A DNA stretch of 64,000 nt from Acinetobacter phage Acba_11. Numbering within the stretch: the stretch's first letter is position 1; every line of letters starts with the position of its first letter. The stretch lies in the sequence record OQ101254.1. The stretch is one strand, 5' to 3'. The notes beneath the pieces are model-generated. The model worked only from the letters and a program-made list of their open reading frames with translations. It did not search any database and was not told the origin of the DNA. The position numbers and the translations under genes are program-made. Positions 9,042-33,121 of this stretch are shown here, in pieces.

Positions 9042-9215
9042 ATGGACAAAAACGAAGCTAAAAAAAATCTGGATAAATATTCACAGGAACTTGAGCGTTA
9101 TCAAAATCTCTCCAGATCGGGTCTTAGCCGTGATGAAATGTTAGTTATCGATAGAATAATTCTTAGATTAAAAAAGCAAGTTAATAATTTACGGACGGCC
9201 TTATATGGACAGTAA
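9042..9215 (+). CDS. Hypothetical 57-aa protein (below the ORF-track cut-off)
   Basis: Stop overlaps the start region of the 9205 gene. Fills a gap. Confidence 0.25.
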   Translation: MDKNEAKKNLDKYSQELERYQNLSRSGLSRDEMLVIDRIILRLKKQVNNLRTALYGQ

Positions 9216-9672
9216 CGATTATTTTTGGCTTACAAGAAAAAAAGAACCAAGAACAAAACCAAAAAGCCGCCCATTACCCAAAGCAACTCAAAAATACCTA
9301 GAAGCTGAAGAAGAATTTATTCATGCATTAGATGTGCTTGAAATCAAATATGAAAAGAAATTTAAGTTTAAATCTACAAAACATTGGCGATTTGATTTTC
9401 ATTTAATTGAACATCGTATTCTGGTCGAAATTGCGGGTGGTCCATGGTCAGGTGGTCGAAAAGGTAAGCTCAAAGATAAAGCTTGGAGTATGGATCGATA
9501 CGATGATGCTGAAGCAATGGGATATACGGTTGTTCGGTTAGAGGCAGCACCAAGTTTTAAAATTAATGAATCTGGCCCGTTACAGATACAAGCTCATTTT
9601 GCTAGTCAGTGGCTTAAAAACTTAAAGAGGCAAATATTTAATGGATCAGATCAGACCGTTTCCACCAACTGA
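9205..9672 (+). CDS. Endonuclease-fold protein (Vsr/DUF559-like), first gene of packaging module A
   Basis: HWRFDFHLIEHRILVEIAGGPWSGG resembles the Vsr-type pDF...IFVDG.FWHG core. Paralog at 21665. Confidence 0.45.
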   Translation: MDSNDYFWLTRKKEPRTKPKSRPLPKATQKYLEAEEEFIHALDVLEIKYEKKFKFKSTKHWRFDFHLIEHRILVEIAGGPWSGGRKGKLKDKAWSMDRYDDAEAMGYTVVRLEAAPSFKINESGPLQIQAHFASQWLKNLKRQIFNGSDQTVSTN

Positions 9673-10282
9673 TTTTATTGATCAAGCTGAAGAAGAGGAA
9701 GCAATTCGTTTAATACCGGCTCCAGACCTAAAAAAATGGGTTGTGGCTAATTACTTAACGATTGGTGGGCCTCTTTATAATCCAGATCATGATCATATTG
9801 CTGAGTTACTTCATGATAATGAAGAGTTCTTGGCATTTGCTTGGGCCTCTTCTGCATATAAAAGCAAGCAGGCGATGGTGCTGGGGCAGTGTGAAAAAGT
9901 AATGTTTAACGTCGGTGGCTGGCGTAAAGCTAGACAAGAGCAACAGATGCGTGACTGGTTCGGTTTTGTGCCAACATACTTAATAACTGTCGACGCTTCT
10001 TTCTGTGAGCGTGCAAACGATACAGAGTTCTGTTATTTGCTTGAACATGAGCTTTACCACATTGGAGTGATGAGAGACGAGGACGGAGAAATTGTTTATA
10101 GCGATAGTTCTGGTCTGCCTAAGCACTATCTTGCTGGTCATGACGTTGAAGAGTTTATTGGCGTAGTTAAACGGTGGGGACCAAGTAAGAATGTTAAGCG
10201 ACTTATTGAGGTCGCAAAAAATCCGCCGTTTGTTTCTGATTTAGATATTGCGAGATGCTGCGGGAACTGTGTAATCAATTGA
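9641..10282 (+). CDS. HExxH metallopeptidase-like protein with C-terminal CCGNC motif (module A)
   Basis: LLEHELYHIGVM zinc-binding motif. Near-identical paralog at 22062. Confidence 0.45.
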   Translation: MDQIRPFPPTDFIDQAEEEEAIRLIPAPDLKKWVVANYLTIGGPLYNPDHDHIAELLHDNEEFLAFAWASSAYKSKQAMVLGQCEKVMFNVGGWRKARQEQQMRDWFGFVPTYLITVDASFCERANDTEFCYLLEHELYHIGVMRDEDGEIVYSDSSGLPKHYLAGHDVEEFIGVVKRWGPSKNVKRLIEVAKNPPFVSDLDIARCCGNCVIN

Positions 10283-10303
10283 GCCTTATGGCTCTTTTTT
10301 TTG
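10281..10303 (+). terminator. Hairpin plus T9 run between the HExxH gene and terS (module A)
   Basis: GAGCC-TTAT-GGCTC followed by TTTTTTTTT. Homologous element at 22700-22725. Confidence 0.5.
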
Positions 10304-10340
10304 TCCTGTTTGCTGTACGTAGCTGTACGAAGGGGAATTT

Positions 10341-10811
10341 ATGGCAGCACTAAAAGAGCCTGTGAAAATATTTATTGTTCAAGCTCTTGCATGCCGTGAT
10401 ACCCCTCAAGAAGTGGTTGAACAGGTCAAGCAAGAGTTTGGAGTTGATATTAGTCGTAGCCAATGCGAATGCTATGACCCAACAAAATATTCGGGCAGAA
10501 ACTTAAGCAAGAAGTTTGTTGAGCTTTTTGAATTAACCAGAGAGAAGTTTGATAAAGGCTTAATTGATATTCCTATTGCTAATAAGTACTACCGACTGAA
10601 GCAATACCAAAGACAGCTTGAGAAGACTAGAAACGTCAAAACAGCCTTAAAAATTCTTGAGCAAGCCGCTAAAGACATTGGTGGTCAATTTACTAATCGT
10701 CAAGAAATTACAGGCAAAGACGGCGGACCAGTTCAAACAGTTAATTCTGAAATTCCAGTTCCAATGGAAGATTACTTAAAAGCGCGGAGGGAAGTCTTAG
10801 ATGAGTACTGA
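10341..10811 (+). CDS. terS: Putative terminase small subunit (DUF2280-like), module A
   Basis: 156 aa, directly upstream of and overlapping terL. The C-terminal 90 aa are identical to copy B; the N-terminal part has diverged. Confidence 0.5.
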   Translation: MAALKEPVKIFIVQALACRDTPQEVVEQVKQEFGVDISRSQCECYDPTKYSGRNLSKKFVELFELTREKFDKGLIDIPIANKYYRLKQYQRQLEKTRNVKTALKILEQAAKDIGGQFTNRQEITGKDGGPVQTVNSEIPVPMEDYLKARREVLDEY

Positions 10812-12228
10812 TGCGGCTCGGGATAAAGCCATCCAGATCGAGGCGCAAGAAGATTTATATTTCTTTACAAGGTACATGTTTAAGGAGCGCCGAGGCTACA
10901 AATGGATGCAAAATTGGCACCACTTAGAAATCTGCGAAGCATTAATGAAAGTTTATCGCGGTGAGACTAAGCGGTTAATTATTAACGTACCACCTCGATA
11001 TTCAAAAACTGAAATTGCTGTAATTAATTTTATGGCTTGGTGTTTTGGAAAGAAACCTGACTGTGAGTTTATTCATATCAGTTACTCGGCAATGCTTGCC
11101 GCAAATAATGCATTTCAGACTCGTAATATGGTTCAAGAAAAGGCTTATAAAAAGGTCTTTCCTGATCTTAAATTACGTGAGGATAGTAAAGCTAAGGATT
11201 TCTGGCGCACAGATGCAGGCGGAGTCTGCTATGCGACTGGTACTGGCGGTACCATTACAGGTTTTGGTGCAGGCAAAATGCGTGAAGGCTTTGGTGGTTG
11301 CATCATCATTGATGACCCGCATAAGGCCGATGAAGCCAAATCAAAAACTATCCGTGAAGGTGTAATTGACTGGTTCCAAAATACTCTCGAGTCTCGTACT
11401 AACTCACCAGAAACGCCAATTATTGTCATTATGCAGCGTCTTCATGAAGATGATTTGGCTGGATGGCTGCTAGGTGATAGAAAAGACGGCGTTCCTGTAG
11501 CTGGTGGTAACGGTGAAGTGTGGGAGCATCTATGTCTTTCGGCTATTCAAGAAGACGGATCTGCATTGTGGCCAGCAAAACACAATATTCAAAAGTTGAA
11601 GCAAATGGAGCAAGCTGCGCCGTATGTTTTTGCCGGGCAATATCGTCAAATGCCATCACCGCCAGCAGGTGGTTTTTTTAAGCCTGACAATATTGAAATT
11701 GTGGATGCTTTACCTGCTGATGTAGTGAAGCAAGTAAGGGCTTGGGACTTTGGTGCTACTGAGAATGAAGGCGACTTTACAGCAGGTGTTAGAGAAGCTC
11801 TTGGCGCAGATGGTTTTACTTACATTGTCGATGTTACAAGAGGACAGCTTGGTCCAGACAATGTTAATAAGCGCTTAAAACAAGTCACAGAGTTAGATGG
11901 GATGGGCGTAACGGTAAGGATTCCTCAAGATCCTGGTCAAGCTGGTAAATCACAAGCTAGTGCATTCGTAAAACTTCTTGCAGGATATGACGTCAAAGCC
12001 AAACCAGTTTCGGGAGACAAACTCACACGTGCACAACCTTTTGCGGCGCAAGTTAACGTGGGTAACGTGAGAATGCTTAGAGGTGATTGGAATAAAGACT
12101 TTATTGAAGAGCTTCGCAATTTTCCAAATGGAACGCATGACGACCAAGTTGATGCTGGTTCAGATGCATTTAATGAATTGAATGGAGGTTTTGAGGCCTT
12201 CTTTGCTGATATGGGATTTGCTCGATGA
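10801..12228 (+). CDS. terL: Terminase large subunit, module A
   Basis: 475 aa. ATPase-like PPRYSKTE and IIIDDPH motifs. C-terminal nuclease-domain HDDQVDA. Followed by a portal gene with ATGA overlap. Confidence 0.85.
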   Translation: MSTDAARDKAIQIEAQEDLYFFTRYMFKERRGYKWMQNWHHLEICEALMKVYRGETKRLIINVPPRYSKTEIAVINFMAWCFGKKPDCEFIHISYSAMLAANNAFQTRNMVQEKAYKKVFPDLKLREDSKAKDFWRTDAGGVCYATGTGGTITGFGAGKMREGFGGCIIIDDPHKADEAKSKTIREGVIDWFQNTLESRTNSPETPIIVIMQRLHEDDLAGWLLGDRKDGVPVAGGNGEVWEHLCLSAIQEDGSALWPAKHNIQKLKQMEQAAPYVFAGQYRQMPSPPAGGFFKPDNIEIVDALPADVVKQVRAWDFGATENEGDFTAGVREALGADGFTYIVDVTRGQLGPDNVNKRLKQVTELDGMGVTVRIPQDPGQAGKSQASAFVKLLAGYDVKAKPVSGDKLTRAQPFAAQVNVGNVRMLRGDWNKDFIEELRNFPNGTHDDQVDAGSDAFNELNGGFEAFFADMGFAR

Positions 12229-13676
12229 GTGACGTAACTTTTAAACATCCTGAATATGTTAAAAACTTGCCATATTGGCAGAAGCTAGATGATGTGTGTG
12301 AAGGCGAGGATGCTGTAAAGGCTAAAGGAGAAAAGTATCTTCCGAAACCCAATGCTCATGATCAATCACCTGCAAATAAAAGTGCTTATGAGGCTTATCG
12401 TACTCGGGCAGTCTTTTATGAAGTAACGGGGACTACATCTAATAGTTTAGTTGGTGCAGCTTTTGCAACCGATCCAAGTTTTAAATTTCCTCCAGAACTA
12501 GCTCACTTAGAACGCAATGCTAACGGCGCGGGATTAAGTGCTTATCAATTGGCACAGAACGGGATCCGACATTTATTAAAGCATTATCGTTGTGCTTTAT
12601 ATGTTGACTATCCTGCAGTTACACCGGCTCGAAATCTTGCGGAGTTTAAACAGCAAAAAGCCTACCCGATGATTCACTTATTGAATGCCATTGATGTGAT
12701 CAATTGGGATTCAATGATGATTGATAACCAGAAAAAGCTTTGCTTGGTGGTCATCCGTGAATTTACTTCAGAACGAGGCGCTGATGGCTTTAGCAAATCT
12801 GAGGTAGAGCAATACAGAGTACTTCGTTTAGAGCCTGATAATGAAGGAAACTTCATCTATACAGTTCAAGTTTACACAAAAGGCGACAAGGGTACATGGA
12901 AGGGCGAAGATAAGAAGTATCCCACTGATAATAACGGGGATTTCTGGTCTTATATTCCATTCACTTTTGTGGGGGCTATTGATAACTCTGAAGAGATTAA
13001 AAAGCCTCCATTGCTCCCATTGGCTAATCTTAATTTAGCTCATTATAGAGATAGTGCGGACTTTCAAGAGTCCGTTTTTTATATGGGCCAACCACAGTTT
13101 TATGCTAAGGGAGTTAATTGGGCTTGGTATGACGAGGCTAAAAAGCGTGGCATTTATATCGGTGCGAAAGTTCTATTACCTTTACCTGAAAACGGTGATT
13201 TGGGGATTGTACAAGCAGATCCAAACACATTAGCACGGGAAGCTATGAAGGATAAGTGGGAGCAAATGAAGGAGCTTGGTGCTCGACTTATTGAAAAAGG
13301 TTCCGCAGCTAAAAAGACTGCTACTGAATCTAACAGTGATGATGCCGTGCAGCATTCCGTTCTTTCACTTTGTGTTGTGAATATGAATGAAGCTTTGTCT
13401 ATGGCTTTACGTTGGGCTGCTAAATTTGTAGTACCTAATGTTGATGTTCTGACTAAAGATGAACTGATGTTCGAAATTAGTCAGGAATTTAACAAGCAAG
13501 GTTATTTAGCTGAGTTGGCTCGTCAATTGTTTGAAGCAGCTTTACAAGGTAGATCTTCATTCAAATCTTGGTGGGAATACAACCAAACAGGAATGTTTCC
13601 TAAACAAAAATATGAAGAAGAAATCCTAAATGTTGAAGCTGAACAGGATGGGACTTTGAATCAAGGAGTGAATTGA
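12225..13676 (+). CDS. Portal protein, module A
   Basis: 483 aa, between terL and the head-morphogenesis gene. Start overlaps the terL stop. Confidence 0.75.
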   Translation: MSDVTFKHPEYVKNLPYWQKLDDVCEGEDAVKAKGEKYLPKPNAHDQSPANKSAYEAYRTRAVFYEVTGTTSNSLVGAAFATDPSFKFPPELAHLERNANGAGLSAYQLAQNGIRHLLKHYRCALYVDYPAVTPARNLAEFKQQKAYPMIHLLNAIDVINWDSMMIDNQKKLCLVVIREFTSERGADGFSKSEVEQYRVLRLEPDNEGNFIYTVQVYTKGDKGTWKGEDKKYPTDNNGDFWSYIPFTFVGAIDNSEEIKKPPLLPLANLNLAHYRDSADFQESVFYMGQPQFYAKGVNWAWYDEAKKRGIYIGAKVLLPLPENGDLGIVQADPNTLAREAMKDKWEQMKELGARLIEKGSAAKKTATESNSDDAVQHSVLSLCVVNMNEALSMALRWAAKFVVPNVDVLTKDELMFEISQEFNKQGYLAELARQLFEAALQGRSSFKSWWEYNQTGMFPKQKYEEEILNVEAEQDGTLNQGVN

Positions 13677-13677
13677 T

Positions 13678-14781
13678 ATGGCGGCAACTATCAAAGAACT
13701 CTTAGAGGCACTAACTCAACACCAAGCATATCTTTTTCGCGCTTCATCAAAAACAGTTAATGAATTATTAGGTTTATTTAATGATGATACAAAAGCAATG
13801 CTTTCAAAGCTGCGTGATCTATTAGAGGAACTTAATGATTCAGAGAAAATTGCTTTAGCTGGTGGGAAGTATACAACGTCAAACCTCAGAGAGATTAAAG
13901 ATTTGATTGACCAATGGTTTGCTAGTGTAAATACAAGCTTACCTGAAGCTTTCACCGTCTCTGCTACCGCTTTAGCGGTTTATGAAGCTAATTACATAGC
14001 CAAGCTATACGGAGCGAAAAATAAAACTCTTAGCGGTGACAAGTTCTATTCTGCTGCTAAAAAGGTACCATTGGCTGGTGGTGCCCTAGTTGATGATCTT
14101 TTATCAAGAATTACTGAAGCTGCCCGTCAAAAAGTTGAATATGCAATCAGAGATGGTATTAACACTGGCAAAACTAATAGTGAGATTATTCAGCGTATCC
14201 GTGGTACCAAGAAGCTAAATTATGAAGACGGATTACTCAACAGCACAAAATCAGACATTGAGCGCACTGTAAGAACGGTTCGGAGCCATGTAGCTAACCA
14301 GGCATATTTAAAAAGTTTTGATCAAATTGGCTTCAAATATGTGCGATTTGTGAGTGTTCTTGATGGAAGAACTTCAAAACTTTGTGCATCCCTTGATGGA
14401 AGCTTTTGGGAAATAAATGACCCAGCAAAGCGCGTTCCTCCATTACATCCAAATTGTCGAAGCATTCTGGTACCAGTTGAGAAAGACGGTTCTTTAGCTG
14501 GTCAGCGTCCTTTTGTGATGGATGAGAGAAGAGTGAAAGACATCCCCAAAGAAGAGCGTGATCAGTTGATTGGGCAAATGGATGCAAACATAACATTTAA
14601 AGAGTTCTTCAAAAAGACAGATGACTTCTTTCAAAAAGAATGGTTGGGACCAAAGCGTTACAAACTCTTCAAAGAGGGAAAATTTGATTTTGAAAAGTTC
14701 TTCGATCCGGATGGACGTCTTTATACACTCGACCAACTTCGCATGTTGGACGAACAATTGTTCAAGAGGTTGGGAATATGA
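13678..14781 (+). CDS. Head morphogenesis protein (Mu gpF / SPP1 gp7 family), module A
   Basis: 367 aa with the HPNCRS motif typical of Mu F-like proteins. Confidence 0.75.
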   Translation: MAATIKELLEALTQHQAYLFRASSKTVNELLGLFNDDTKAMLSKLRDLLEELNDSEKIALAGGKYTTSNLREIKDLIDQWFASVNTSLPEAFTVSATALAVYEANYIAKLYGAKNKTLSGDKFYSAAKKVPLAGGALVDDLLSRITEAARQKVEYAIRDGINTGKTNSEIIQRIRGTKKLNYEDGLLNSTKSDIERTVRTVRSHVANQAYLKSFDQIGFKYVRFVSVLDGRTSKLCASLDGSFWEINDPAKRVPPLHPNCRSILVPVEKDGSLAGQRPFVMDERRVKDIPKEERDQLIGQMDANITFKEFFKKTDDFFQKEWLGPKRYKLFKEGKFDFEKFFDPDGRLYTLDQLRMLDEQLFKRLGI

Positions 14782-15039
14782 ATTTTACTTTAAGTGGTGA
14801 GGGGAAAATTCAACTATCTACTCGAGCAAAATACAGATTGCGTAGATGGCTTAGAAAACTTGAAAAGAGGTCGAAGTTATGAAGCAAATAACTATGACTC
14901 AAGCACAATACATCCTAAGTACAAATCTTATTGTTGTGCCTTTTGTAAGGAAGTTGATTCCAAGATATATGGCTATTTTAGGATACAACTTCAAACAGCC
15001 CACAGCACAGATTCCGCATTAAACCTAATTCAAACCATA

Positions 15040-15061
15040 GCACCTTCGGGTGCTTTTTTTA
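15040..15061 (+). terminator. Intrinsic terminator (GCACC-TTCG-GGTGC plus T7), conserved in both modules
   Basis: Same hairpin at about 28172-28192 in module B. Confidence 0.6.
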
Positions 15062-15073
15062 TATGAGGTCATC

Positions 15074-15586
15074 ATGACAAAGCAACCGCAAACACTTCAA
15101 GAGCTAGTTCAAAATGTTGAATATTTCAATGTGGACCAAGCATCACCAGATGCACTACCTAAACGCATTATATGCATCCTAAAACTTCACTCTGGAGTGC
15201 AAGTAAACGGCGAGTATTTGATTCCTGAAGGTTCACCTGTTGGTGATTACAATCCGTTTGCACTTACATCTGCCATTGAAAATTTAAAAAAGCTCGGATT
15301 TGAAATTATTGAACCACCTTCTGAACCACAAGTAATCGAAGGTGAGGCAGTTGAGGTTGGCCAGAATTTAGATGACCCATCACTTAAAGCGGTTGAAGCA
15401 CCAAAAATTAAAAGTCTGGAATCCCATGTAACTGTTACGGGCGCAGGGGTTAATACTTATGATGTTCGTCATGCAAATCTGCATTCAATTGAAGCATTGA
15501 CCTCACTTTTGAAGGTTACGAAGTTAAATACTGATGTGTCGAATGCTGCAAACTCTAAGCTTGTTGAACTTATTAATGGACTCTAA
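15074..15586 (+). CDS. Hypothetical protein (moron slot, module A only)
   Basis: ATG 15074 with GAGG RBS. No counterpart in module B. Confidence 0.45.
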   Translation: MTKQPQTLQELVQNVEYFNVDQASPDALPKRIICILKLHSGVQVNGEYLIPEGSPVGDYNPFALTSAIENLKKLGFEIIEPPSEPQVIEGEAVEVGQNLDDPSLKAVEAPKIKSLESHVTVTGAGVNTYDVRHANLHSIEALTSLLKVTKLNTDVSNAANSKLVELINGL

Positions 15587-15654
15587 GTTTCAGGCGTCTT
15601 GAGCATATTTTAATTTTAACCAGCACACTAAGGTGCTTTTTTTGTGAGAAAGAA

Positions 15655-15969
15655 ATGACCAAAGAAGTAACAGAGCAAGAGTTAGCGGAAAAGTCTGTGG
15701 CACCCCGAGTAACTAAAGCGCAAATTGATGCGATGATGGACCGCGTTACATATACAGTGGAGCAGCGCCCTGGAGGTACAACATCTACTTTTGTACATGC
15801 ATTTTTAGATGGAAAATTTTTTCTAGCAACGGGTTTTAGCGCATGTGTGAATGCAGAAAACTTTGATGCTGAAATGGGTGAGCGTATAGCTCGAAGCAAC
15901 GCAGAAAAGTCAGCCGAAAATAAACTTTGGGAACTCGAAGGCTATCGTTTATTTGCCACAAACTTCTAA
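15655..15969 (+). CDS. Gp49-like phage protein (N4 gp49 / Sf6 gp66 family), module A only
   Basis: ATGFSACVNAENFDAEMGERIARSNAEKSAENKLWELEGY matches the CV.P.NFD..G...A...A..K.WELEGY signature. Confidence 0.6.
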   Translation: MTKEVTEQELAEKSVAPRVTKAQIDAMMDRVTYTVEQRPGGTTSTFVHAFLDGKFFLATGFSACVNAENFDAEMGERIARSNAEKSAENKLWELEGYRLFATNF

Positions 15970-16010
15970 GTTTTTAATCGAAATAAAGCGTCCTTAGGGG
16001 CGCTTTTTTA

Positions 16011-16082
16011 ATGTCTGCCGGAAGCGGATGCGGACGGTGAATCCGGGCGGATGCCCACTTGTGTATATAGGTTGGATGACCA
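16011..16082 (+). promoter_or_regulatory. Conserved GC-rich element upstream of the scaffold gene (module A copy)
   Basis: TGCCGGAAGCGGATGCGGACGGTGAATCCGGGCGGATGCCCA, then TGTATATAGG, then ATG. Direct repeat GCGGATGC x2, 5-bp inverted repeat CGGAT/ATCCG. Conserved at about 28440-28508 despite diverged flanks. Confidence 0.4.
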
Positions 16083-16850: not shown

Positions 16851-16877
16851 TCATTAAATATTTGGAGATAAGTAGTT

Positions 16878-17834: not shown

Positions 17835-17854
17835 AACCTAAAAATTAAAACCTA

Positions 17855-17879
17855 AGGGGGCTAATAAGCCCTCTTTTTT
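17855..17879 (+). terminator. Intrinsic terminator after the major capsid gene
   Basis: AGGGGGC-TAATAA-GCCCTCT followed by TTTTTT. Confidence 0.6.
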
Positions 17880-17899
17880 ATTATTAAGAGAAAAGCGCC

Positions 17900-18565: not shown

Positions 18566-18569
18566 TGCA

Positions 18570-20082: not shown

Positions 20083-20083
20083 A

Positions 20084-24655: not shown

Positions 24656-26103
24656 GTGATGTAACTTTTCAACATGCTGAATATGTTAAGAACTTGCCAT
24701 ACTGGCAAAAACTTGATGATGTTTGTGAAGGTGAAGATGCAGTTAAGGCTAAAGGTGAAAAATATTTGCCGATGCCAAATGCACATGATAAATCACCTGC
24801 AAATAAAAGCGCTTATGAGGCTTATCTTACCCGTGCAGTCTTTTATGAAGTAACAGGGACTACATTAAATAGTTTAGTTGGTGCAGCTTTTGCAACCGAT
24901 CCAAGTTTTAAATTTCCTCCGGAACTTGCTCATTTAGAACGTAATGCAAATGGTGCTGGTTTAAGTACTTATCAATTGGCTCAAAATGGAATTCGCCATT
25001 TATTGAAGCATTATCGTTGTGCTTTATATGTAGATTATCCTGATGTGCCGCCAGCTCGTAATCTAGCGGAATTTAAAGCACAAAAAGCCTATCCGATGAT
25101 TCATTTACTAAATGCCCTTGATGTAGTGAATTGGGATTCAGTAATGATCGATAACCAGAAAAAGCTTTGCTTAGTGGTTATACGTGAATTTAAGTCTGAG
25201 CGCGGTGCTGATGGATTTAGTAAAACCGAACAAGAGCAATATCGTGTACTTCGTTTAGAGCAAGAGGGAAATGGGGAATATATTTATTCCGTTCAGGTGT
25301 ACACAAAGGGTGAAAAGGGTAACTGGGTTGGCGGAGAGAAGAAGTTTCCAACAGATTACAACGGGAATTTCTGGACCTATATACCTTTTACATTTGTAGG
25401 TGCAATTGATAATTCAGAAGAGATTAAAAAGCCACCATTACTTCCTTTGGCTAATCTCAATTTAGCCCATTACAGAGACAGTGCGGACTTTCAAGAGTCC
25501 GTTTTTTATATGGGGCAACCTCAATATTATGCGAAGGGTGTTAATTGGGAGTGGTATGACCAAGCCAAGAAACGTGGCATCTACATTGGAGCGAAAGTAC
25601 TTTTGCCTTTACCTGAAAATGGTGGTTTAGGAATTGTACAAGCCGACCCTAATACTCTTGCCCGGGAAGCGATGAAAGATAAGTGGGAAAAAATGAAGGA
25701 GATGGGGGCGCGTTTAATTGAGAAGGGCTCGGGAAGTAAAAAGACCGCTACCGAAGCGAATAGTGATGACGCCGTTCAGCATTCAGTTCTTTCGCTCTGT
25801 GTCGTTAATATGAATGAAGCCTTGTCAGCAGCATTACGATGGGCTGCTAAGTTTGTAACGCCTAATGTGGATGTTCTAACTAAAGATGATTTGATGTTCG
25901 AAATCAGTCAAGAATTTAACAAACAGGGTTATTTAGCTGAGTTAGCTCGACAGTTATTTGAAGCAGCTCTACAAGGCCGATCTTCATTTAAATCATGGTG
26001 GGAATACAACCAAACAGGTATGTTCCCTAAACAAAAATATGAAGAAGAGCTTCAGAATGTTGAAGCAGAGCAAGATGGGACTTTAAATCAAAAGGTAGAG
26101 TGA
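24652..26103 (+). CDS. Portal protein, module B
   Basis: 483 aa paralog of 12225..13676. Confidence 0.75.
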   Translation: MSDVTFQHAEYVKNLPYWQKLDDVCEGEDAVKAKGEKYLPMPNAHDKSPANKSAYEAYLTRAVFYEVTGTTLNSLVGAAFATDPSFKFPPELAHLERNANGAGLSTYQLAQNGIRHLLKHYRCALYVDYPDVPPARNLAEFKAQKAYPMIHLLNALDVVNWDSVMIDNQKKLCLVVIREFKSERGADGFSKTEQEQYRVLRLEQEGNGEYIYSVQVYTKGEKGNWVGGEKKFPTDYNGNFWTYIPFTFVGAIDNSEEIKKPPLLPLANLNLAHYRDSADFQESVFYMGQPQYYAKGVNWEWYDQAKKRGIYIGAKVLLPLPENGGLGIVQADPNTLAREAMKDKWEKMKEMGARLIEKGSGSKKTATEANSDDAVQHSVLSLCVVNMNEALSAALRWAAKFVTPNVDVLTKDDLMFEISQEFNKQGYLAELARQLFEAALQGRSSFKSWWEYNQTGMFPKQKYEEELQNVEAEQDGTLNQKVE

Positions 26104-26104
26104 G

Positions 26105-27208
26105 ATGGCAACAGATATCAAAAAACTATTTGAAGTACTCACTCAGCACCAGGCCTATCTTTATCGTGCTTCATCAAAAACGGTAAATGAGTTATTGGCT
26201 TTATTCAATGATGATACGAGCAAGATGCTATCTAAGCTTCGGGATTTATTGGATGAGCTTAATGAGTCGGAGAAAGTTGCTTTAGCTGGTGGTAAATATA
26301 CAACTTCAAATTTAAGGGAAATTAGGGATTTGATTGCCCAATGGTTTGCCAGTGTTAATTTAGCATTACCTGAAGCTTTTGCCGTTTCTGCTACGGCGCT
26401 GGCTGTTTATGAGGCCAATTACGTATCTAAGCTCTATGGAGCAAAAATTAATAAGTCTGATGGGGAAAAACTATTCTTATCCGCTAAAAAAGTTCCGTTG
26501 GCAGGTGGCGCTCTTGTCGATGATCTGCTTTCAAGAATTGCTGAAAGTGCCCGTCAAAAGGTTGAGTATGCAATTCGAGATGGTATTAATTCAGGCAAAA
26601 CTAACCAAGAAATTGTTCAGCGTATTCGTGGTACCAAACGGCTTAACTATGAAGATGGGATCTTAAATGGTACCAAAACTGATATTGAGCGAACGGTAAG
26701 AACTGTGCGAAGTCATGTAGCTAATCAAGCCTATCTAAATAGCTTCAACCAAATTGGCTTTGAATATGTCCGATTTGTGAGTGTTCTTGATGGACGAACT
26801 TCTAAGCTTTGCGCTTCATTAGATGGTTCAGTGTGGGAAATAAATGATCCGGCAAAGCGAGTGCCGCCGTTACATCCTAACTGTCGCAGTATCTTGGTTC
26901 CGGTCGAGAAGGACGGTCAACTTGTTGGCGAACGGCCATTTGTAATGGACGAACGTAGAGTTAAAGACATCCCCAAAGAAGAGCGAAGCCAGTTAATAGG
27001 ACAGTTAGATGCAAACACCACATTCAAAGAGTTCTTTAAGAAAACAGATGATTTCTTTCAAAGGGAGTGGCTAGGGCCAAAGCGCTTTAAGCTCTATAAA
27101 GATGGGAAATTTGATTTTGATAAGTTCTTTGATCCTGAAGGCCGTTTCTATAGCTTAGATGATTTGAGAAAGTTGGATGAAAAAGCTTTTAAAAAGTTGG
27201 GTCTGTAA
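26105..27208 (+). CDS. Head morphogenesis protein (Mu gpF / SPP1 gp7 family), module B
   Basis: 367 aa, HPNCRS motif. Confidence 0.75.
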   Translation: MATDIKKLFEVLTQHQAYLYRASSKTVNELLALFNDDTSKMLSKLRDLLDELNESEKVALAGGKYTTSNLREIRDLIAQWFASVNLALPEAFAVSATALAVYEANYVSKLYGAKINKSDGEKLFLSAKKVPLAGGALVDDLLSRIAESARQKVEYAIRDGINSGKTNQEIVQRIRGTKRLNYEDGILNGTKTDIERTVRTVRSHVANQAYLNSFNQIGFEYVRFVSVLDGRTSKLCASLDGSVWEINDPAKRVPPLHPNCRSILVPVEKDGQLVGERPFVMDERRVKDIPKEERSQLIGQLDANTTFKEFFKKTDDFFQREWLGPKRFKLYKDGKFDFDKFFDPEGRFYSLDDLRKLDEKAFKKLGL

Positions 27209-27252
27209 TTTTTCTTATGTTATATTTTTTAAAACATCAGAATTTATACAAT

Positions 27253-27645
27253 ATGAAAACAATAGCTTTTGTATGTCTAACCCTAATTTCCATCACTTGT
27301 TTAGCTGAACCAAGTCAAAAATATCTTAAAGAATATGATCGATTGTCTGAAGCTTTGGAGTCAGCAATGGCAAATGCATATTCTTTTGATCCTGCAACTG
27401 GTCAAGTAAAACAGGCTACTCAAGGTTTAGAAGCTAAAAATAATTTATGTAGAGCTGCCCAGGCGAAACTAAACCTCACCACGTTTTTAAAAGACAATTT
27501 AGAGGAATCTAAAGAGCTTTATAAATCTATTGATGGTGCAGAGACTCTAGATAAAAATTATCTTAGTGGAAAACAGCAGGAACAACAAAATCTCGTTTCA
27601 AATTTGAAAAAAGACCTTGTTGGAACTGGATTTAACTGTGAGTAA
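27253..27645 (+). CDS. Secreted/periplasmic protein with signal peptide (moron, module B only)
   Basis: MKTIAFVCLTLISITCLAEPSQ signal peptide, two Cys in the mature part, AT-rich flanks. No counterpart in module A. Confidence 0.5.
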   Translation: MKTIAFVCLTLISITCLAEPSQKYLKEYDRLSEALESAMANAYSFDPATGQVKQATQGLEAKNNLCRAAQAKLNLTTFLKDNLEESKELYKSIDGAETLDKNYLSGKQQEQQNLVSNLKKDLVGTGFNCE

Positions 27646-27743
27646 TTATTGCCGATTACAGGTAATTCTAAACTCACTTAAGACACAATTTTCACCTATA
27701 TAAGCGCCCAAATGGCGCTTTTGTCATTTATGGAGTTTGGCTT

Positions 27744-27986
27744 ATGAGTGAATCAAAAGTTAGACATTTGGTACTTAAAAGAGTTTCAGATAAATCTTCT
27801 CATCTTGCTCTTTGTGACGAGGAAACAGGTATTCCATTAGCTGGATTAACCGCTGTAAAAATGAATTGTAGTGTTTTTGAGGGTCCAGCGACTATCACGG
27901 CAACATTTGATGTAGGTGGTCCTCAAGGCATCCGCTTAGTTGGTGATGAACCTAGACAAAAGGTTTGGAGTGCAAAGGAAACGTAG
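27744..27986 (+). CDS. Hypothetical protein (module B only)
   Basis: ORF preceded by hairpin at about 27700-27722. Confidence 0.35.
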   Translation: MSESKVRHLVLKRVSDKSSHLALCDEETGIPLAGLTAVKMNCSVFEGPATITATFDVGGPQGIRLVGDEPRQKVWSAKET

Positions 27987-28203
27987 CGAAAGGCACTACA
28001 AATGCCTGAAAAGCAAATCAATATGTCAGATGCTCAATATATTCTGAGCACAAAATGAATTCTGGTGCCATTTCTTCAAATTAAGGTTTCAAGCCATGGC
28101 AATTTATGGTTTTACTTTTGAAAGATTAAAATCAATCGCACTCATCAAATAGAACTTAATTTTTAACCATAGCACCTTCGGGTGCTTTTTTTGCGAGAAG
28201 AAA

Positions 28204-28395
28204 ATGCCAAGCCCTATTATCCAATATTTCCAATATGAACATTTACCTGAACATTTGCAGCAAGTTAGTAAGCCAATTGGTGATTTAGCTCGGCAAATGG
28301 ATGAGCAACTTCCTGACGGGCCTGAAAAATCCACAGGATTAAGAAAGCTACTTGAAGCAAAAGATGCATTTGTACGCCAAGCTTTAAGTAAATAA
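28204..28395 (+). CDS. Hypothetical 63-aa protein (module B only)
   Basis: ORF between two terminators (28172-28192 and 28413-28434). Confidence 0.35.
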   Translation: MPSPIIQYFQYEHLPEHLQQVSKPIGDLARQMDEQLPDGPEKSTGLRKLLEAKDAFVRQALSK

Positions 28396-28439
28396 TCATT
28401 TATAGAAATGAAGCGTCCTAAAGGGCGCTTTTTTATTGC

Positions 28440-28508
28440 CTGCCGAAAGCGGATGCTAACGGCGAATCCGGGCGGATGCCCATTTTGTATATATAGGTTG
28501 GATGACCA
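28440..28508 (+). promoter_or_regulatory. Conserved GC-rich element upstream of the scaffold gene (module B copy)
   Basis: TGCCGAAAGCGGATGCTAACGGCGAATCCGGGCGGATGCCCA, then TTTTGTATATATAGG, then ATG. GCGGATGC x2. Confidence 0.4.
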
Positions 28509-29276
28509 ATGAAACTTAAAACAGTAACAATCGACGGTAAAGTTTATGCGGAAGTAGACGGTGATAAGCCGATCTATATTCATGATGACGGCAAAGAAAT
28601 GCCACATGATGCACCACACTCGGTAGCAACAATTGCACGCTTAAACAATGAAGCTAAAACACATCGTGAAGCCAAAGAAGCAGCCGAAAAAGCATTAAAA
28701 GCTTTTGAAGGAATTGAAGACCCAGCGGCAGCTAAAAAGGCATTACAAACAATCCAAAATCTCGATGATAAAAAGCTGGTGGATGCCGGTGAAGTTGAGA
28801 AAGTTAAAGCTGAAGCTATCAAAGCAGTTGAGGAAAAATATGCCCCGATTGTTGCGCAACGTGATGCTCTAGAAGCCTCTTTACATAAAGAACTTATCGG
28901 CGGTGGTTTTGCTCGTTCTAAGTACATTCAAGACAACATTGCAGTACCTGTGGACATGGTTCAGGCAACCTTTGGTCATCACTTCAAAATCGAAGAAGGC
29001 AAGGTGGTTGCATATGATCCGAACGGCGAAAAGATTTATTCACGTGTCCGCCCGGGTGAACTTGCAAATGTTGATGAAGCTTTAGAGTCATTGGTTGGTG
29101 GATACCAGCATAAAGACTTAATTCTTAAAGGTGGTAAAGGAACTGGTGGCGGTTTTCAAGGTGGGGGCAAAGGTGGAGCGCCTGCAGGAATGAAACGCAG
29201 TGAAATGTCTGTTTCTCAGAAAGCTGACTACATCAAAGAACATTGCAATGATGCCTTCCTAAAACTGCCGAACTAA
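28509..29276 (+). CDS. Capsid scaffolding protein, module B
   Basis: Paralog of 16083..16850. Confidence 0.6.
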   Translation: MKLKTVTIDGKVYAEVDGDKPIYIHDDGKEMPHDAPHSVATIARLNNEAKTHREAKEAAEKALKAFEGIEDPAAAKKALQTIQNLDDKKLVDAGEVEKVKAEAIKAVEEKYAPIVAQRDALEASLHKELIGGGFARSKYIQDNIAVPVDMVQATFGHHFKIEEGKVVAYDPNGEKIYSRVRPGELANVDEALESLVGGYQHKDLILKGGKGTGGGFQGGGKGGAPAGMKRSEMSVSQKADYIKEHCNDAFLKLPN

Positions 29277-29303
29277 TCATTAAAAATTTGGAGATAAGTA
29301 GTT

Positions 29304-30260
29304 ATGACTACAACAGTTAATTCAGACATGATCATCTACAACCAATTGGCTCAAACTGCTTATTTAGAGCGTTTGCAAGACAATTTGAACGTATTTAACC
29401 AGGCCTCTAATGGTGCAATTGTATATCGCAATGAGATTATTGAAGGTGATTTCAATAAAGAGGCATTTTACAAAGTGGGCGGTAGCATCAAGCATCGTGA
29501 TGTGAATTCAACCGCCAAAGTAGTGCCTGAGAAGATTGGGTCTGGTGAATCTGTAGGCGTAAAAGTCCCATATAAATATGGTCCTTATGCTTCAACCGAA
29601 GAGGCATTCAAACGCCGTGCACGCACACCTGAAGAGTTTGCCATGATTCTTGGTTATGATTTAGCAGATGCATTAGTTGCAGGACGTTTACAGTACAGTT
29701 TAGCCTCCTTAAAAGCAGCTATTTCTAGCAACCCGGATATGGTTGCCAAAGGCAGTATTGCTGTAGATGGGCGTAAAGCATTAACACGTGGTATGCGTAA
29801 GTTTGGCGATAAGTTTGGACGTATTAGTTTATGGGTAATGAACTCAGATACTTATTTCGATATTGTCGATGATGCAATCACTAATCAAATTTATGGCGAA
29901 TCTGAAATCGTTATCTATGGTGGTTTACCGGGTACCTTAGGTAAGCCGGTATTGGTTACAGATGCCGTAGGTGATGATGATGCATTTGGTTTGCAAATGG
30001 GTGCAGTTACTGTTACAGAATCACAAGTACCAGGCTTCCGCGCGTATGACATCAATGATGAAGAAAACTTGGCAATCGGTATGCGTGCTGAGGGTACATT
30101 TAACCTAGATATTCTTGGTTATAGCTGGGATACATCAAAAGGTGAAAACCCTGACCTTACTTTACTTGGTTCAAGTGCCAACTGGAAAAAACATGCTACT
30201 AGCAACAAAATGACAGCAGGCACATTGCTTGATCTATCTGGCACAACAACAACTGGTTAA
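29304..30260 (+). CDS. Major capsid protein, module B
   Basis: 318-aa paralog of 16878..17834, about 95 percent identical. Confidence 0.75.
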   Translation: MTTTVNSDMIIYNQLAQTAYLERLQDNLNVFNQASNGAIVYRNEIIEGDFNKEAFYKVGGSIKHRDVNSTAKVVPEKIGSGESVGVKVPYKYGPYASTEEAFKRRARTPEEFAMILGYDLADALVAGRLQYSLASLKAAISSNPDMVAKGSIAVDGRKALTRGMRKFGDKFGRISLWVMNSDTYFDIVDDAITNQIYGESEIVIYGGLPGTLGKPVLVTDAVGDDDAFGLQMGAVTVTESQVPGFRAYDINDEENLAIGMRAEGTFNLDILGYSWDTSKGENPDLTLLGSSANWKKHATSNKMTAGTLLDLSGTTTTG

Positions 30261-30324
30261 CTCATAAACATCTCACTATAAGAGGGCTATTAAGCCCTCT
30301 TTTTACATTTAAGAGAAATGCATC

Positions 30325-30990
30325 ATGAAGCTAATTTATACACGTATTGCTGCTGCAGCTGCGTTAGAGGTTGGAACTATTGCCAATCCTGATTATTACG
30401 AACATCCGAATCGAAGTGCTGAAGAAGTAATTATTTACGGTGATTACCCGAAAATCCAAAATGATTACCAAGCTCTGGATATTCCTGTTGAAGTTCGCAA
30501 ATTGGAAGAGCCTGCAAAAACGACATTGGCCACTGTAAATGTAGCGGTTGGAATTACTCCAGAGCTGCAAGAAGTTATTGATAAAACTAAAGCTGAGTGT
30601 GAAAAGGTTGTTGAGGAAAACGGGCAACTTAAACAGAAAATCGAAATCTTGGAACAAGCTAGTGGTGATAGTTCGGAGTTAATTTCTGAAAACTCACGTT
30701 TAAAAGATGCTGTACTCCAAGCTGACAATGCTACTAAAGCGGCTGAAGAAAAGGTAGTAAGCATTCAAGCAGAGTTTGATGCTTTTAAAAATGATGTTGC
30801 TGCTATGCAAGCGCGTATTGCTGAATTGGAAGCTGGAAAAGCGGCAGAAAATTCAGCAACAGAAACGGCAGCTAATGATTTTGAAAACTGGTCAAATGAT
30901 CAATTAAAAGAGTATTTGGCTAGTAAAAACATTGGTTACAAACCGTCTGCAACAAAAGCAGAACTCCTTAAATTAATCCCGAAGGAATAA
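30325..30990 (+). CDS. Head-associated coiled-coil protein with C-terminal HeH motif, module B
   Basis: Paralog of 17900..18565. C-terminal 60 aa identical. Confidence 0.4.
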   Translation: MKLIYTRIAAAAALEVGTIANPDYYEHPNRSAEEVIIYGDYPKIQNDYQALDIPVEVRKLEEPAKTTLATVNVAVGITPELQEVIDKTKAECEKVVEENGQLKQKIEILEQASGDSSELISENSRLKDAVLQADNATKAAEEKVVSIQAEFDAFKNDVAAMQARIAELEAGKAAENSATETAANDFENWSNDQLKEYLASKNIGYKPSATKAELLKLIPKE

Positions 30991-30994
30991 TGCA

Positions 30995-31384
30995 ATGAGC
31001 TTTATTACTGTAGATGACGCAAATTCAATTTTGGGCAGCGATTTTGCACCAGACAGTGATAAAGCTCGTCTGGTAAAGCTGGCTAATGTTTGGATGAAAA
31101 AACGGATTGGTTTTGTACCAGATCCTATTGATCCACTTCTTAAAGACGCGGCTTGTGAAATTATCAAAGGAATTCTGGCCAAAGTAATTTATAACGGCAA
31201 AGACCAGCAGTTGAAACGTAAGAAAGTTAAAGCTGATTCTGTTGAGTCAGAAAAAGAATATCAGGACGGATCTGAAGCAATCTCTAGCTTTGAACAGATA
31301 GCAATTGATTTTATTGATTCACTTGAATTGAAAGATCCAAATGCAAGTTTTAATGGCTTTGGCATACCACTTTACAGGGCATGA
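30995..31384 (+). CDS. Head-tail connector/adaptor candidate, module B
   Basis: Paralog of 18570..18959. Confidence 0.45.
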   Translation: MSFITVDDANSILGSDFAPDSDKARLVKLANVWMKKRIGFVPDPIDPLLKDAACEIIKGILAKVIYNGKDQQLKRKKVKADSVESEKEYQDGSEAISSFEQIAIDFIDSLELKDPNASFNGFGIPLYRA

Positions 31385-31754
31385 TATGGGCTTACGTGAC
31401 GAAATTCAGGCAGATATTGCTGAAGCATTTAATGAGGATCTGGCGGATGCGGTCCAAACATTTACATGTGACAGGGTTGTTAGTACCAACTGGAACCCTA
31501 AAACAAACACCTCTGAAAATGTCATTGAGCATTATGAGGGGCGTGGCGTTCTGTTTGGCTCATACAATCAATATGAAATACAAACTCTCGGAGTACTGGC
31601 CACAGATAAAAAGGCAACTGTGCTGCAGAATGAAGTTACCAAAGAGCCGATGATTGATGACGAATGGAGTACGGCGCAAGGTACATATCGCATCATGCAT
31701 ATCAAACAAGATCCAATCAGTGCAAGCTGGAAATGTCAGCTTCGAAAAGTGTAG
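31341..31754 (+). CDS. Head completion protein candidate, module B
   Basis: Paralog of 18916..19329. Confidence 0.4.
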   Translation: MQVLMALAYHFTGHDMGLRDEIQADIAEAFNEDLADAVQTFTCDRVVSTNWNPKTNTSENVIEHYEGRGVLFGSYNQYEIQTLGVLATDKKATVLQNEVTKEPMIDDEWSTAQGTYRIMHIKQDPISASWKCQLRKV

Positions 31755-31762
31755 GGGCTAAA

Positions 31763-32167
31763 ATGGTTAATACCGAATATGTTCCAGAGTGGTACATCAC
31801 ACCTTTTCAGCATGTGCAATACACGCTTGCTAGAAATCAGCTTCACATGGATTTGTTATTTGAAGATATGGATGAAGCTGATCAATTTTTGGATATGGGA
31901 GCGGATGCACAGGTTAGTACTTTTTCTGATGGTGCATATGCAATCGTCCAAATTGGTGATACGGCGGATAAAGACAAAATTCAAGTATATGGATTGCTTT
32001 TACATGAAGCGGTTCACGTTTGGCAAATAGTAAAGAAGCGAATGGGTGAAAGTGAACCAAGTGTTGAGTTTGAAGCATATTCAATTCAAGCGATCGCTCA
32101 AGACCTATTTGAAATGTACGAAGCAAGCGAGGTGAGCAATGGGATGGAAGGGGAAAAAGCCGACTAG
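31763..32167 (+). CDS. Head-tail joining protein candidate, module B (ATG 31763; ORF open from 31664)
   Basis: Same length as the 19338..19742 product. Confidence 0.4.
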   Translation: MVNTEYVPEWYITPFQHVQYTLARNQLHMDLLFEDMDEADQFLDMGADAQVSTFSDGAYAIVQIGDTADKDKIQVYGLLLHEAVHVWQIVKKRMGESEPSVEFEAYSIQAIAQDLFEMYEASEVSNGMEGEKAD

Positions 32168-32507
32168 CTTTAGTGTTGATGTGGTGAAAAATGCTGAAGA
32201 ACAAGTAAAGAAAATCACGATGGATACCGTGCAATCACTTGTAGTTTCGAGTCCAGTTGATACAGGTGCTTACAGAGCTTCTCATATCGTATCTATTGGA
32301 ACTGCTGATTATGGTGTTCGTGAACCATCAACTAATCCAGTTCAAGATGCAGCAGTTCAAGCAGTCAAGTTTAAGCTTGGAAATCTGATCTTTATTCAAA
32401 ACAACAAAGCCTATGGTCCGCGATTAGAAAACGGTTGGTCTGATCAAGCACCTCTTGGTATTTACAGCACTACTTTCACTTACATTACTCAAAAATATGG
32501 TGGCTAA
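32139..32507 (+). CDS. Head-tail joining/tail completion candidate, module B
   Basis: Paralog of 19711..20082. Confidence 0.4.
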   Translation: MGWKGKKPTSFSVDVVKNAEEQVKKITMDTVQSLVVSSPVDTGAYRASHIVSIGTADYGVREPSTNPVQDAAVQAVKFKLGNLIFIQNNKAYGPRLENGWSDQAPLGIYSTTFTYITQKYGG

Positions 32508-32508
32508 G

Positions 32509-32907
32509 ATGCCAATGACATTAGAGCAAGCTAGACAAGCAATAGTCGACCGTATGATGGCCTTTACAGGAATTTCTCAAGAAAGAATCCATTATCCAAA
32601 TGCACCAGGCTTCTTAGCACCAGCAAAGGGCTTATGGTGCCGCTTAACCATTAAATGGGGTCCAAGTTTCATTGCTGGGTTAGCCGATACACCCTGTACT
32701 CGACGTACTGGGAATATCTTGATTCAATGCTTTGCAAGACCAGACACGGGAGACCAGGCAATAACCATTCTAAGTGTTGCATTACTTTCACATTTTGAAT
32801 ATTTCAGGATTGGGCATTTAGAATGCTTTCAAGGTCAAACGATAGATGCGGGTAAAGATGCTGACTTTCTGCAGTACAATGTGACGATTGGATTTACGGT
32901 GAATTGA
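32509..32907 (+). CDS. Tail completion protein candidate, module B (ATG 32509)
   Basis: Paralog of 20084..20482. Confidence 0.4.
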   Translation: MPMTLEQARQAIVDRMMAFTGISQERIHYPNAPGFLAPAKGLWCRLTIKWGPSFIAGLADTPCTRRTGNILIQCFARPDTGDQAITILSVALLSHFEYFRIGHLECFQGQTIDAGKDADFLQYNVTIGFTVN

Positions 32908-32908
32908 T

Positions 32909-33121
32909 ATGTCTTACATGCTGACGCTAGAAGAAAGTGAAATTAAAAAACAAGAGCTTGAACGACACTTGGCAGATGTAATGGCTAAGGAGCTAAGTAA
33001 ATGGCAGTTGTCTAATAAATTATGTATTTCTGATGTAAAAATTCGCCTCGCTAATGTTAATAGCATAAATGGACCAAATTTAAATATTGTTACTGGAGTA
33101 AGTGTTGATTTGGATGATTGA
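32909..33121 (+). CDS. Hypothetical 70-aa protein ending module B
   Basis: Paralog of 20484..20702. Confidence 0.4.
   Translation: MSYMLTLEESEIKKQELERHLADVMAKELSKWQLSNKLCISDVKIRLANVNSINGPNLNIVTGVSVDLDD

Follow-up and report, generated by a model that had tools for sequence, protein, structure and literature searches.

Genuine tandem duplications occur in phage genomes, as in lambda, where duplication phages have been selected in deletion backgrounds; such duplications begin as identical copies and remain within the packaging limits. Packaging and capsid genes are also carried by phage satellites, among them the capsid-forming PICIs, which possess sets of their own. The closest described relatives of the Acinetobacter phage Acba_11 belong to the AM106 and YMC11/11/R3177 / Ab1656-2 groups (proposed Shemyakinvirus and Vieuvirus). 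These phages hold all the genes of the sequence considered here at 95–100% nucleotide identity but, unlike the Acba_11 record, every other member compared has one head module.

The Acba_11 record (OQ101254) comprises 67,052 bp, and the window that we analysed is its leading 64 kb. Our comparisons indicate, with a probability of roughly 0.85, that the double head module of this record is an artefact of assembly and record closure, in which the head modules of two related, co-sequenced phages were probably stitched together.

Two diverged head modules in the deposited sequence

Two diverged packaging/capsid modules are present in the deposited sequence, and their similarity is far beyond chance. 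The colinear modules occupy positions 9217–20693 (copy A) and 21677–33118 (copy B) and are 83–85% identical at the nucleotide level outside a central non-homologous stretch. In a self-blastn of the window, 9217–14790 aligned with 21677–27216 (82.6% identity, 5.6 kb) and 15974–20693 with 28399–33118 (84.8% identity, 4.7 kb), while the module centre of about 1.2 kb (14790–15973 in copy A, 27216–28399 in copy B) is not homologous and contains in each copy three small ORFs that match in position and share no homology. The sequence-only reading had counted 17 colinear gene pairs; the colinearity stands, but the homologous pairs number 15 (19308–19742 versus 31733–32167 being one of them), the ORFs of the centre being unrelated. 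The same reading was right that both copies are intact, as all the homologous pairs have ATG starts and no internal stops. Amino acid identity within the pairs is 60–98% and dN/dS is 0.04–0.17, with dS varying from gene to gene between 0.15 and 2.4.

The gene identities proposed earlier (Dam, TerL, portal, MCP and others) are supported by domain assignments. The identities include the D12 Dam methylase, PhageMetallopep, a DUF2280 TerS-like protein, TerL with Terminase_6 N- and C-terminal domains, a DUF4055 portal, a Mu-F protein, a DUF6651 scaffold, a Gp13-like MCP, an Ish1/HeH coiled-coil protein and a tail-terminator-like protein. The gene described as ninB-like gave a sub-threshold Pfam match alone (E=0.0066) and is called weakly NinB-like here. 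A tail tube gene (PF18906) was found after copy B only, in agreement with the earlier observation that the tail module follows this copy alone. The features of the region are the following.

7900–8727, + strand: D12-class Dam methylase (Pfam PF02086, E=8.5e-28), the native upstream neighbour of copy A in the Acba_3/14-type early-right region; one piece in megablast with Acba_3
9205–16736, + strand: copy A left, Acba_3/Acba_14 type, 100% identical to Acba_3 per 300-bp bin; endonuclease, metallopeptidase, TerS-like protein, TerL, portal, Mu-F, three small ORFs and most of the scaffold gene
16737–16885, + strand: copy A switch interval, a run of 149 bp over which Acba_3 and Acba_4 do not differ
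16886–20786, + strand: copy A right, Acba_4/Ab1656-2 type, 99.7–100% identical to Acba_4; MCP, coiled-coil protein, connector/completion genes, a 72-aa gene and 84 bp of spacer
20786–20787, no strand: novel blunt junction, Acba_4 position 23726 to Acba_4 position 11298–11301 (approximate), by base-by-base comparison
20787–20840, + strand: what the joint leaves of a 64-aa early gene (Acba4_062 homologue), its 3' end
20858–21624, + strand: 171-aa (weakly NinB-like) and 77-aa genes, 100% identical to Acba_4/15/16
21665–29162, + strand: copy B left, Acba_4/15/16 type, 99.3–100% identical to Acba_4 per 300-bp bin
29163–29311, + strand: copy B switch interval, homologous to 16737–16885, with 8 SNPs (a third natural allele)
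29312–33121, + strand: copy B right, Acba_3/14 type, 100% identical to Acba_3/14
33229–34158, + strand: first gene of the tail module, coding for the tail tube protein (Pfam PF18906, E=4.4e-47); natively adjoins the Acba_3-type right half and is contiguous in Acba_3

The copies are reciprocal mosaics of co-sequenced phages

The per-bin comparison with the single-module siblings from the same study demonstrated that copy A is of Acba_3/14 type and then of Acba_4 type, and that copy B has the reverse order. Every segment of both copies is about 100% identical per bin to Acba_3/14 or to Acba_4/15/16, all of them co-sequenced genomes, which is the pattern expected of an artefact. Private SNPs are few: one in the left part of copy A (position 9320) and three in its right part, six scattered ones in the left part of copy B and one in its right part. 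The right part of copy A is also 99.9% identical to Ab1656-2 over 17709–20786, and the right part of copy B runs unbroken into an Acba_3/14-type tail module. The view that both modules lie within a single phage genome is not supported, because the segments are 100% identical to single modules found in sibling phages that the same pipeline assembled. We reject duplication in situ followed by divergence, since for each half-copy there is another phage with 100% identity; rather than paralogues that arose within one genome, the copies are mosaics of other phages' single modules. The independent phages AM106 and Ab1656-2 carry unmixed module combinations.

At the informative sites copy A has Acba_3 alleles through 16736 and Acba_4 alleles starting at 16886, and copy B has Acba_4 alleles through 29162 and Acba_3 alleles starting at 29312. 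Both switches thus sit within the 149-bp run, which covers the 3' end of the scaffold gene, the intergenic spacer and the start of the MCP gene. This run is the sole exact match of at least 127 bp between the Acba_3 and Acba_4 modules (the runner-up is 96 bp), 127 being the SPAdes overlap length observed in the sibling records. The SNPs of the copy B interval span 29180–29285, and seven of the eight are common to the prophage record MD-2021a. The scaffold protein from copy B matches WCF71692.1 exactly, a protein that occurs on a single contig, that of Acba_11, among about 15 billion proteins; this look-up confirmed the provenance of the window. A reciprocal mosaic would be produced equally by a single Campbell-type crossover, which is a point against reading it as an artefact.

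The joint at 20786/20787

The only novel junction is the joint at 20786/20787, where the sequence returns from Acba_4 position 23726 to 11297. The joint is blunt, with 0–1 bp of microhomology, and truncates a small gene: the 64-aa early gene that is intact at Acba_4 11161–11355 is represented in the window by its last 54 nt or so. In each of the 10 natural contexts displayed, an intact 64-aa gene lies upstream of the 171-aa gene, which is invariably preceded by early genes, and the order throughout is DUF968, 64 aa, 171 aa, 77 aa and head module; in Acba_4-type phages the 171-aa and 77-aa genes natively stand upstream of copy B. SH3 and tail genes come after the last gene of copy A in each of the 10 displayed places.

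The adjacency created by the joint was never seen in the natural contexts of its flanking genes. No record spanning the joint was present in the phage collection searched, a 40-mer across it had zero matches in IMG/VR, GTDB genomes and JGI metagenomes, and the look-up of the ORF bridging it returned no record of such a protein. The absence from GTDB is weak evidence because this collection keeps one genome per species. The novel joint was thus not found in independent molecules or assemblies in any collection searched, and a homology-free, gene-cutting joint unique to the Acba_11 record is what an artefact would leave. Recurrent breakpoints at Acba_4 11297 or 23726 were not found among the compared siblings; Acba_16 diverges about 95 bp before the Acba_4 breakpoint, at an assembly gap region. 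The outer boundaries (9000–9400 and 33000–33300), which the sequence-only reading had singled out for checking, are both native and contiguous in Acba_3/14; the joint lies within the third stretch that it named, 20600–21800.

Closure defects in records of the same pipeline

The methods published by the authors of the Acba genomes describe fragmented mixed assemblies, the use of "trusted contigs" and ends "fitted" to reference phages; the authors also state that the scaffold was gapless. Closure or chimera defects affect no fewer than four of the sibling records (Acba_3, Acba_13, Acba_4/14 and Acba_15). An exact 127-bp tandem repeat is present in Acba_3 and Acba_13, in Acba_3 exactly at the point where the locus tags wrap. 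In Acba_4 the DnaB helicase gene is broken by a 587-bp hole at the wrap point, a rotation point, and Acba_15 carries a tandem of two distinct immunity/replication regions, where a blunt joint truncates a helicase. Closure errors are thus a demonstrated product of this pipeline. The 127-bp closure repeat is absent from the Acba_11 window; therefore Acba_11 was not closed by overlap.

With its 67,052 bp Acba_11 is about 12 kb (about 22%) longer than the single-module siblings of 55–57 kb that have the same capsid genes. Its head, measured by TEM as 67.9 × 56.1 nm, is no bigger than theirs, TEM sizes being noisy.

Discussion

We infer that the Acba_11 lysate was non-clonal: besides a phage of the Acba_14/Acba_3 type it would have contained one or more relatives of the Acba_4 type, probably induced from a prophage or co-enriched. 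Most of the genome would be the same in both types, with differences in the early-right, head and proximal-tail region. The head modules of the two would meet at one place only in the SPAdes graph, the 149-bp identical run. The scaffold may then have circled the Acba_14-type genome once, after which each end would have exited via the shared node into the unused Acba_4-type arm, giving a linear scaffold composed of an Acba_4-type left half, the whole Acba_14-type genome and an Acba_4-type right half. The redundancy of its ends would have been missed as an overlap because they are only about 84% alike. Upon "fitting" of the ends to a reference phage the sequence was presumably rotated as if circular and the scaffold ends butt-joined, which would yield both the blunt joint at 20786/20787 and the apparent tandem pair of reciprocal mosaics.

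Some details count against this account. Both switches fall in a run longer than 127 bp, yet the copy B interval bears the eight SNPs of a third allele; therefore the two passes through the "node" were not identical in the Acba_11 sample, and the collapse of two genomes at k=127 falls short for copy B, where a third variant or a step at lower k would be needed. The end points at Acba_4 11297 and 23726 may be attributed to coverage gaps, because there is no branch point there among the compared siblings. Simple cross-contamination from the Acba_4 library is unlikely, as the Acba_4-type parts differ from Acba_4 by nine scattered SNPs, in addition to the eight-SNP patch.

The alternative that survives best, which we consider unlikely, is that the 67-kb genome is genuine and belongs to a phage or defective prophage bearing two diverged head modules. 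In a cell occupied by both phage types, a 12.43-kb Acba_4-type segment (11297–23726) would have been circularised, or first tandemly duplicated by illegitimate recombination, before a single homologous crossover at the 149-bp (or a 26-bp) identity brought it into an Acba_14-type genome. A single Campbell-type crossover predicts exactly the mosaic observed, and the longest identical run is preferred by homologous recombination as well; the intactness of both copies, the reported gapless scaffold and the high mosaicism of temperate A. baumannii phages also agree with such an origin. It requires, however, a blunt homology-free circularisation or duplication in addition to the crossover, and would place a genome about 22% longer in a head that was not measured to be larger. 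The joint is present in no other record, and closure artefacts are demonstrable from the same pipeline. Direct repeats of 11 kb at 83–97% identity are, moreover, expected to recombine away quickly. A genuine 67-kb recombinant of any kind is, in our overall judgement, improbable, and it is slightly less probable still that Acba_11 is a viable temperate phage of about 67 kb, born of recombination between two co-resident phages and stably carrying two complete, diverged, reciprocally mosaic modules, of which only one is linked to the tail genes.

Much less probable is a packaged terminal-redundancy heterozygote, formed by headful packaging of a recombinant concatemer in a mixed infection, with different parental alleles at its two ends, and reproduced by the assembler. 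The Terminase_6 N- and C-terminal domains of TerL, an arrangement common in headful packagers, and the redundant, non-identical ends that the linear scaffold would have had are compatible with it. A redundancy of about 12 kb (about 20%) would be required, however, and the terminal redundancy of headful phages is usually several-fold below this value; a permuted population would not retain the ends of one molecule in a short-read assembly, and both ends lie at arbitrary positions, one within a gene.

The least probable of these explanations is that a capsid-forming satellite (cf-PICI-like) or a foreign packaging/capsid cassette was captured and retained as a second functional module. Like a capsid-forming PICI, copy A has a TerS–TerL–portal–MCP–connector block that is not followed by tail genes. 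Unlike a PICI, neither copy is accompanied by an integrase, att sites, a regulator or replication genes; the neighbouring genes are early or tail genes native to phages, complete tailed phages have single modules with 100% identity to both halves of each copy, and the left edge of the supposed cassette cuts a gene. The lack of an integrase, att or regulatory module of its own, together with modules native to complete tailed phages, contradicts a satellite origin. A fossil of tandem prophages can be dismissed, as the window is in vegetative order (tail–lysis–int–early–left) and contiguous with Acba_3/4, the record derives from virion DNA, and a deletion between tandem prophages cannot yield reciprocal mosaics around a joint linking two points of one parent. 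Among the three options offered by the sequence-only reading, mis-assembly is accordingly the one that we retain, rather than cassette capture or the prophage fossil.

The mis-assembly reading places Acba_11 near the mixed-strain chimeric or over-extended SPAdes scaffolds: its segments match co-sequenced genomes identically, the switches occur at the 149-bp run, and the joint is homology-free and gene-truncating at the place where a linear scaffold would be closed and rotated. Its sibling records show the classic 127-bp duplication left by untrimmed SPAdes end overlaps; the Acba_11 redundancy differs in being 11.5 kb long, only about 84% identical and in having a third allele in one switch interval. 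A head-to-tail repeat with one novel joint is also seen in genuine tandem duplications, but the Acba_11 copies are orthologues from two lineages, with dS up to 2.4, each matching another phage. The resemblance to an ancient duplication under selection would arise because the second pass took the arm of the other phage.

OQ101254, evidently deposited as a phage genome, is probably chimeric. The double module is most likely of no biological import, because a phage with two head modules probably does not exist here. Chimeric records swell genome sizes and gene counts, bring false "duplications", "double immunity regions" and broken essential genes into comparative and taxonomic work, and can misguide the safety assessment of candidate therapeutic phages. 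If a phage with two head modules were real after all, nature would have provided an unusual experiment in capsid-module redundancy, and the question would become which terminase, portal and capsid proteins make up the Acba_11 virions.

Two diverged head modules in one record

Comparison of the window with itself confirmed that a colinear packaging/capsid module is present twice, as the sequence-only reading had it. Positions 9217-14790 of copy A match 21677-27216 of copy B at 82.6% nucleotide identity and 15974-20693 match 28399-33118 at 84.8%, the two blocks being separated by about 1.2 kb without similarity. The 17 gene pairs counted earlier proved to be 15 homologous pairs, accompanied by three small ORFs per copy that match in position and have no homology to each other. 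All 15 pairs are indeed intact with ATG starts, and most genes have the same ORF length in both copies; amino acid identity is 60-98% and dN/dS 0.04-0.17, while dS is highly uneven among the pairs (0.15-2.4). The proposed gene names were borne out by Pfam, except for NinB, whose match was sub-threshold. The tail module was correctly placed after copy B alone, the only copy followed by a tail tube gene. The Pfam-based layout is:

Upstream of copy A: Dam methylase
9205-20702 (copy A) and 21665-33121 (copy B): phage metallopeptidase, DUF2280 (TerS-like), TerL, DUF4055 portal, Mu-F, DUF6651 scaffold, Gp13-like MCP, Ish1/HeH coiled-coil protein and tail-terminator-like protein, in this order

By megablast of the window, the nearest group is that of temperate Acinetobacter baumannii siphophages, and the closest records are Acba_1 to Acba_18 (OQ101248-OQ101259, twelve accessions) from one Polish study. 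According to passages of that study, Acba_11 (OQ101254; 67,052 bp, 96 ORFs) is the largest of the set, its nearest relatives having 55-57 kb.

The two copies form a reciprocal mosaic

When the two copies were aligned with the one head module of each of the siblings Acba_3 and Acba_4, a reciprocal pattern at 100% identity emerged. In copy A the sequence up to about 16.7 kb is that of Acba_3 (and Acba_14) and the remainder, as far as 20786, that of Acba_4; in copy B the Acba_4 sequence comes first, between 20782 and about 29.2 kb, and gives way to the Acba_3/14 type, which continues into the tail genes. Site-by-site comparison placed the switches between 16736 and 16886 in copy A and in the homologous interval 29162-29312 in copy B. 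Over the 149 bp of this interval Acba_3 and Acba_4 do not differ; no other exact match between the two module types reaches 127 bp, the second longest measuring 96 bp. Unmixed combinations occur in phages of other laboratories, AM106 being Acba_3-like and Ab1656-2 Acba_4-like. Beyond the repeat, the rest of the window matches the Acba_14/Acba_3 genome type at 100% identity. The overall structure thus equals an Acba_14-type genome plus a circularly permuted 12.43-kb Acba_4-type segment (Acba_4 11297-23726) placed at one homologous point.

The switch interval of copy B holds 8 SNPs within 105 bp (29180-29285) that fit neither the Acba_3 nor the Acba_4 sequence. The natural prophage record MD-2021a, which also has the flanking pattern, contains seven of them; the remaining one, at 29244 (G to T), changes Gly to Cys around codon 246 of the copy B scaffold gene and is private even with respect to MD-2021a. 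By exact-sequence look-up, the copy B scaffold protein (WCF71692.1) occurs on a single contig in a collection of 15 billion proteins. The patch thus means that a third allele is involved, and a plain collapse of two genomes at k=127 is not a full account of copy B. Among the siblings that were comparable, scaffold endpoints did not coincide with branch points.

The joint at 20786|20787

The boundaries between dam and copy A (9000-9400) and between copy B and the tail tube gene (33000-33300), where spanning checks had been proposed, are native. The only novel junction in the window, ...CATTCTGTTACAG|ATAATCTTTCATT..., links Acba_4 position 23726, 26 bp before an SH3-domain tail gene, to about Acba_4 position 11298, with a microhomology of 0-1 bp; a 64-aa early gene loses its 5' part there. 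No record in the phage collection searched spans it, a 40-mer covering it was not found in IMG/VR, GTDB representative genomes or JGI metagenomes, and the joint-spanning ORF was not on record in the protein look-up. The collection indexes the 72-aa gene at the end of copy A in 12,750 blocks, and SH3, tail-fibre and tail-tube genes come after it in 10 of 10 contexts among the matches listed; likewise among the matches listed, the 171-aa gene after the joint always has DUF968 and the intact 64-aa gene upstream.

Closure faults in sibling records

An exact 127-bp tandem repeat is present in Acba_3 (OQ101248, 22020-22273) and Acba_13 (OQ101255, 22105-22358). In Acba_3 it lies exactly at the locus-tag wrap (072 to 001), which shows that the contig ends were butt-joined untrimmed and the record then rotated; what remains is the k=127 end overlap of the SPAdes contig. 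This 127-mer occurs once in the window (34925-35051). The window itself lacks any 127-bp closure repeat; an overlap was therefore not what closed its scaffold.

A stretch of 587 bp (window 2139-2725), within the DnaB-like helicase gene (1669-2994) that is intact in the window, is missing from Acba_4 (5556/5557) and Acba_14 (2106/2107), frameshifting the replicative helicase in both. As the gap of Acba_4 falls at its locus-tag wrap (001/077), it probably stems from the joining of contig ends and not from a genuine deletion. Acba_15 (OQ101257, 60.4 kb) carries two different immunity/replication-start regions in tandem (2364-8675), the first CI-cro-DnaD of Acba_13 type (99.95%) and the second repressor-cro-replication of Acba_3 type, with a blunt joint at 5557 that cuts short a helicase gene. 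This diverged tandem duplication is of one kind with that of the Acba_11 head modules; an assembly artefact of the same class is its probable cause, which would explain the 60.4 kb.

Other features of the window

16083-16850 and 28509-29276: DUF6651 scaffold protein, called 'telomere regulation protein' in sibling annotations (WCF71692.1 is so named)
17900-18565 and 30325-30990: Ish1/HeH coiled-coil head protein, called 'stress-responsive nuclear envelope protein'
34823-37447: small regulatory island of low GC (0.34-0.36) within the tail module, flanked by the tail chaperone and tape measure genes; by sibling annotations it encodes a 'regulatory protein' on the minus strand, a DNA-binding protein and the antirepressor Ant
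45305-55774: one ORF of 3,489 aa in the distal part of the tail region, annotated in the siblings as 'putative main tail protein', with GC 0.44-0.46 against about 0.40 around it and reversed GC skew
63897-63986: early-left region, exact tandem repeat of 45 bp that Acba_3 (51289) and Acba_4 (57004) have as well

In passages of the source paper a linear-plasmid prophage lifestyle was suggested from the 'telomere regulation protein' name. The gene's position between Mu-F and MCP and its Pfam match identify it as a head scaffold or decoration gene. The 3,489-aa ORF probably codes for a giant central fibre or a host-specificity protein that differs in origin, and the 45-bp repeat, shared by both siblings, is probably genuine.

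Origin of the duplication

We consider that the duplicated head module is not a real feature of the phage, with a probability of about 0.85. The reasons are that both switches lie in the only shared run of at least 127 bp, 127 being the overlap length left in sibling records; that siblings carry closure artefacts; that the window has no closure repeat; and that the Acba_11 capsid, as reported in the study's passages, measures 67.9 x 56.1 nm, no bigger than in the 55-kb relatives, although TEM sizes are noisy. The study's procedure argues the same way: its passages describe contigs from 6-14x subsamples fed back as trusted contigs, 'one dominant scaffold' being 'published as partial genomes', and enrichment with dilution spotting, plaque purification going unmentioned in them.

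In the most likely course of events, the lysate would have been mixed, an Acba_14-type phage being accompanied by one or more relatives of Acba_4 type. Path extension would have run round the circular major genome, each end exiting via the node common to both phages into the minor phage's arm, which was still unused, and halting where the coverage of that arm ended. The linear scaffold would then have had redundant ends of 11.5 kb, and at only about 84% identity their overlap would have gone unrecognised; rotation of the record to an AM106-like start would have fused them at 20786|20787.

A single Campbell-type crossover in vivo would produce the same reciprocal mosaic, but a real recombinant phage with two head modules is improbable: it would require homology-free circularisation or duplication, be about 22% oversize and contain unstable direct repeats amounting to 11 kb, and it has no independent sighting. 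Any further reading is most improbable; the likeness to a real tandem duplication is superficial, the copies here not being paralogues and having no independent joint, as is that to a captured capsid cassette, whose element genes are lacking. The features of a chimeric scaffold from a mixed population, closed by butt-joining, are present here in the identity of the segments to co-sequenced genomes, the unique blunt joint that cuts a gene, and the closure errors of the same pipeline. OQ101254 and several sibling records are best handled as chimeric or wrongly closed.
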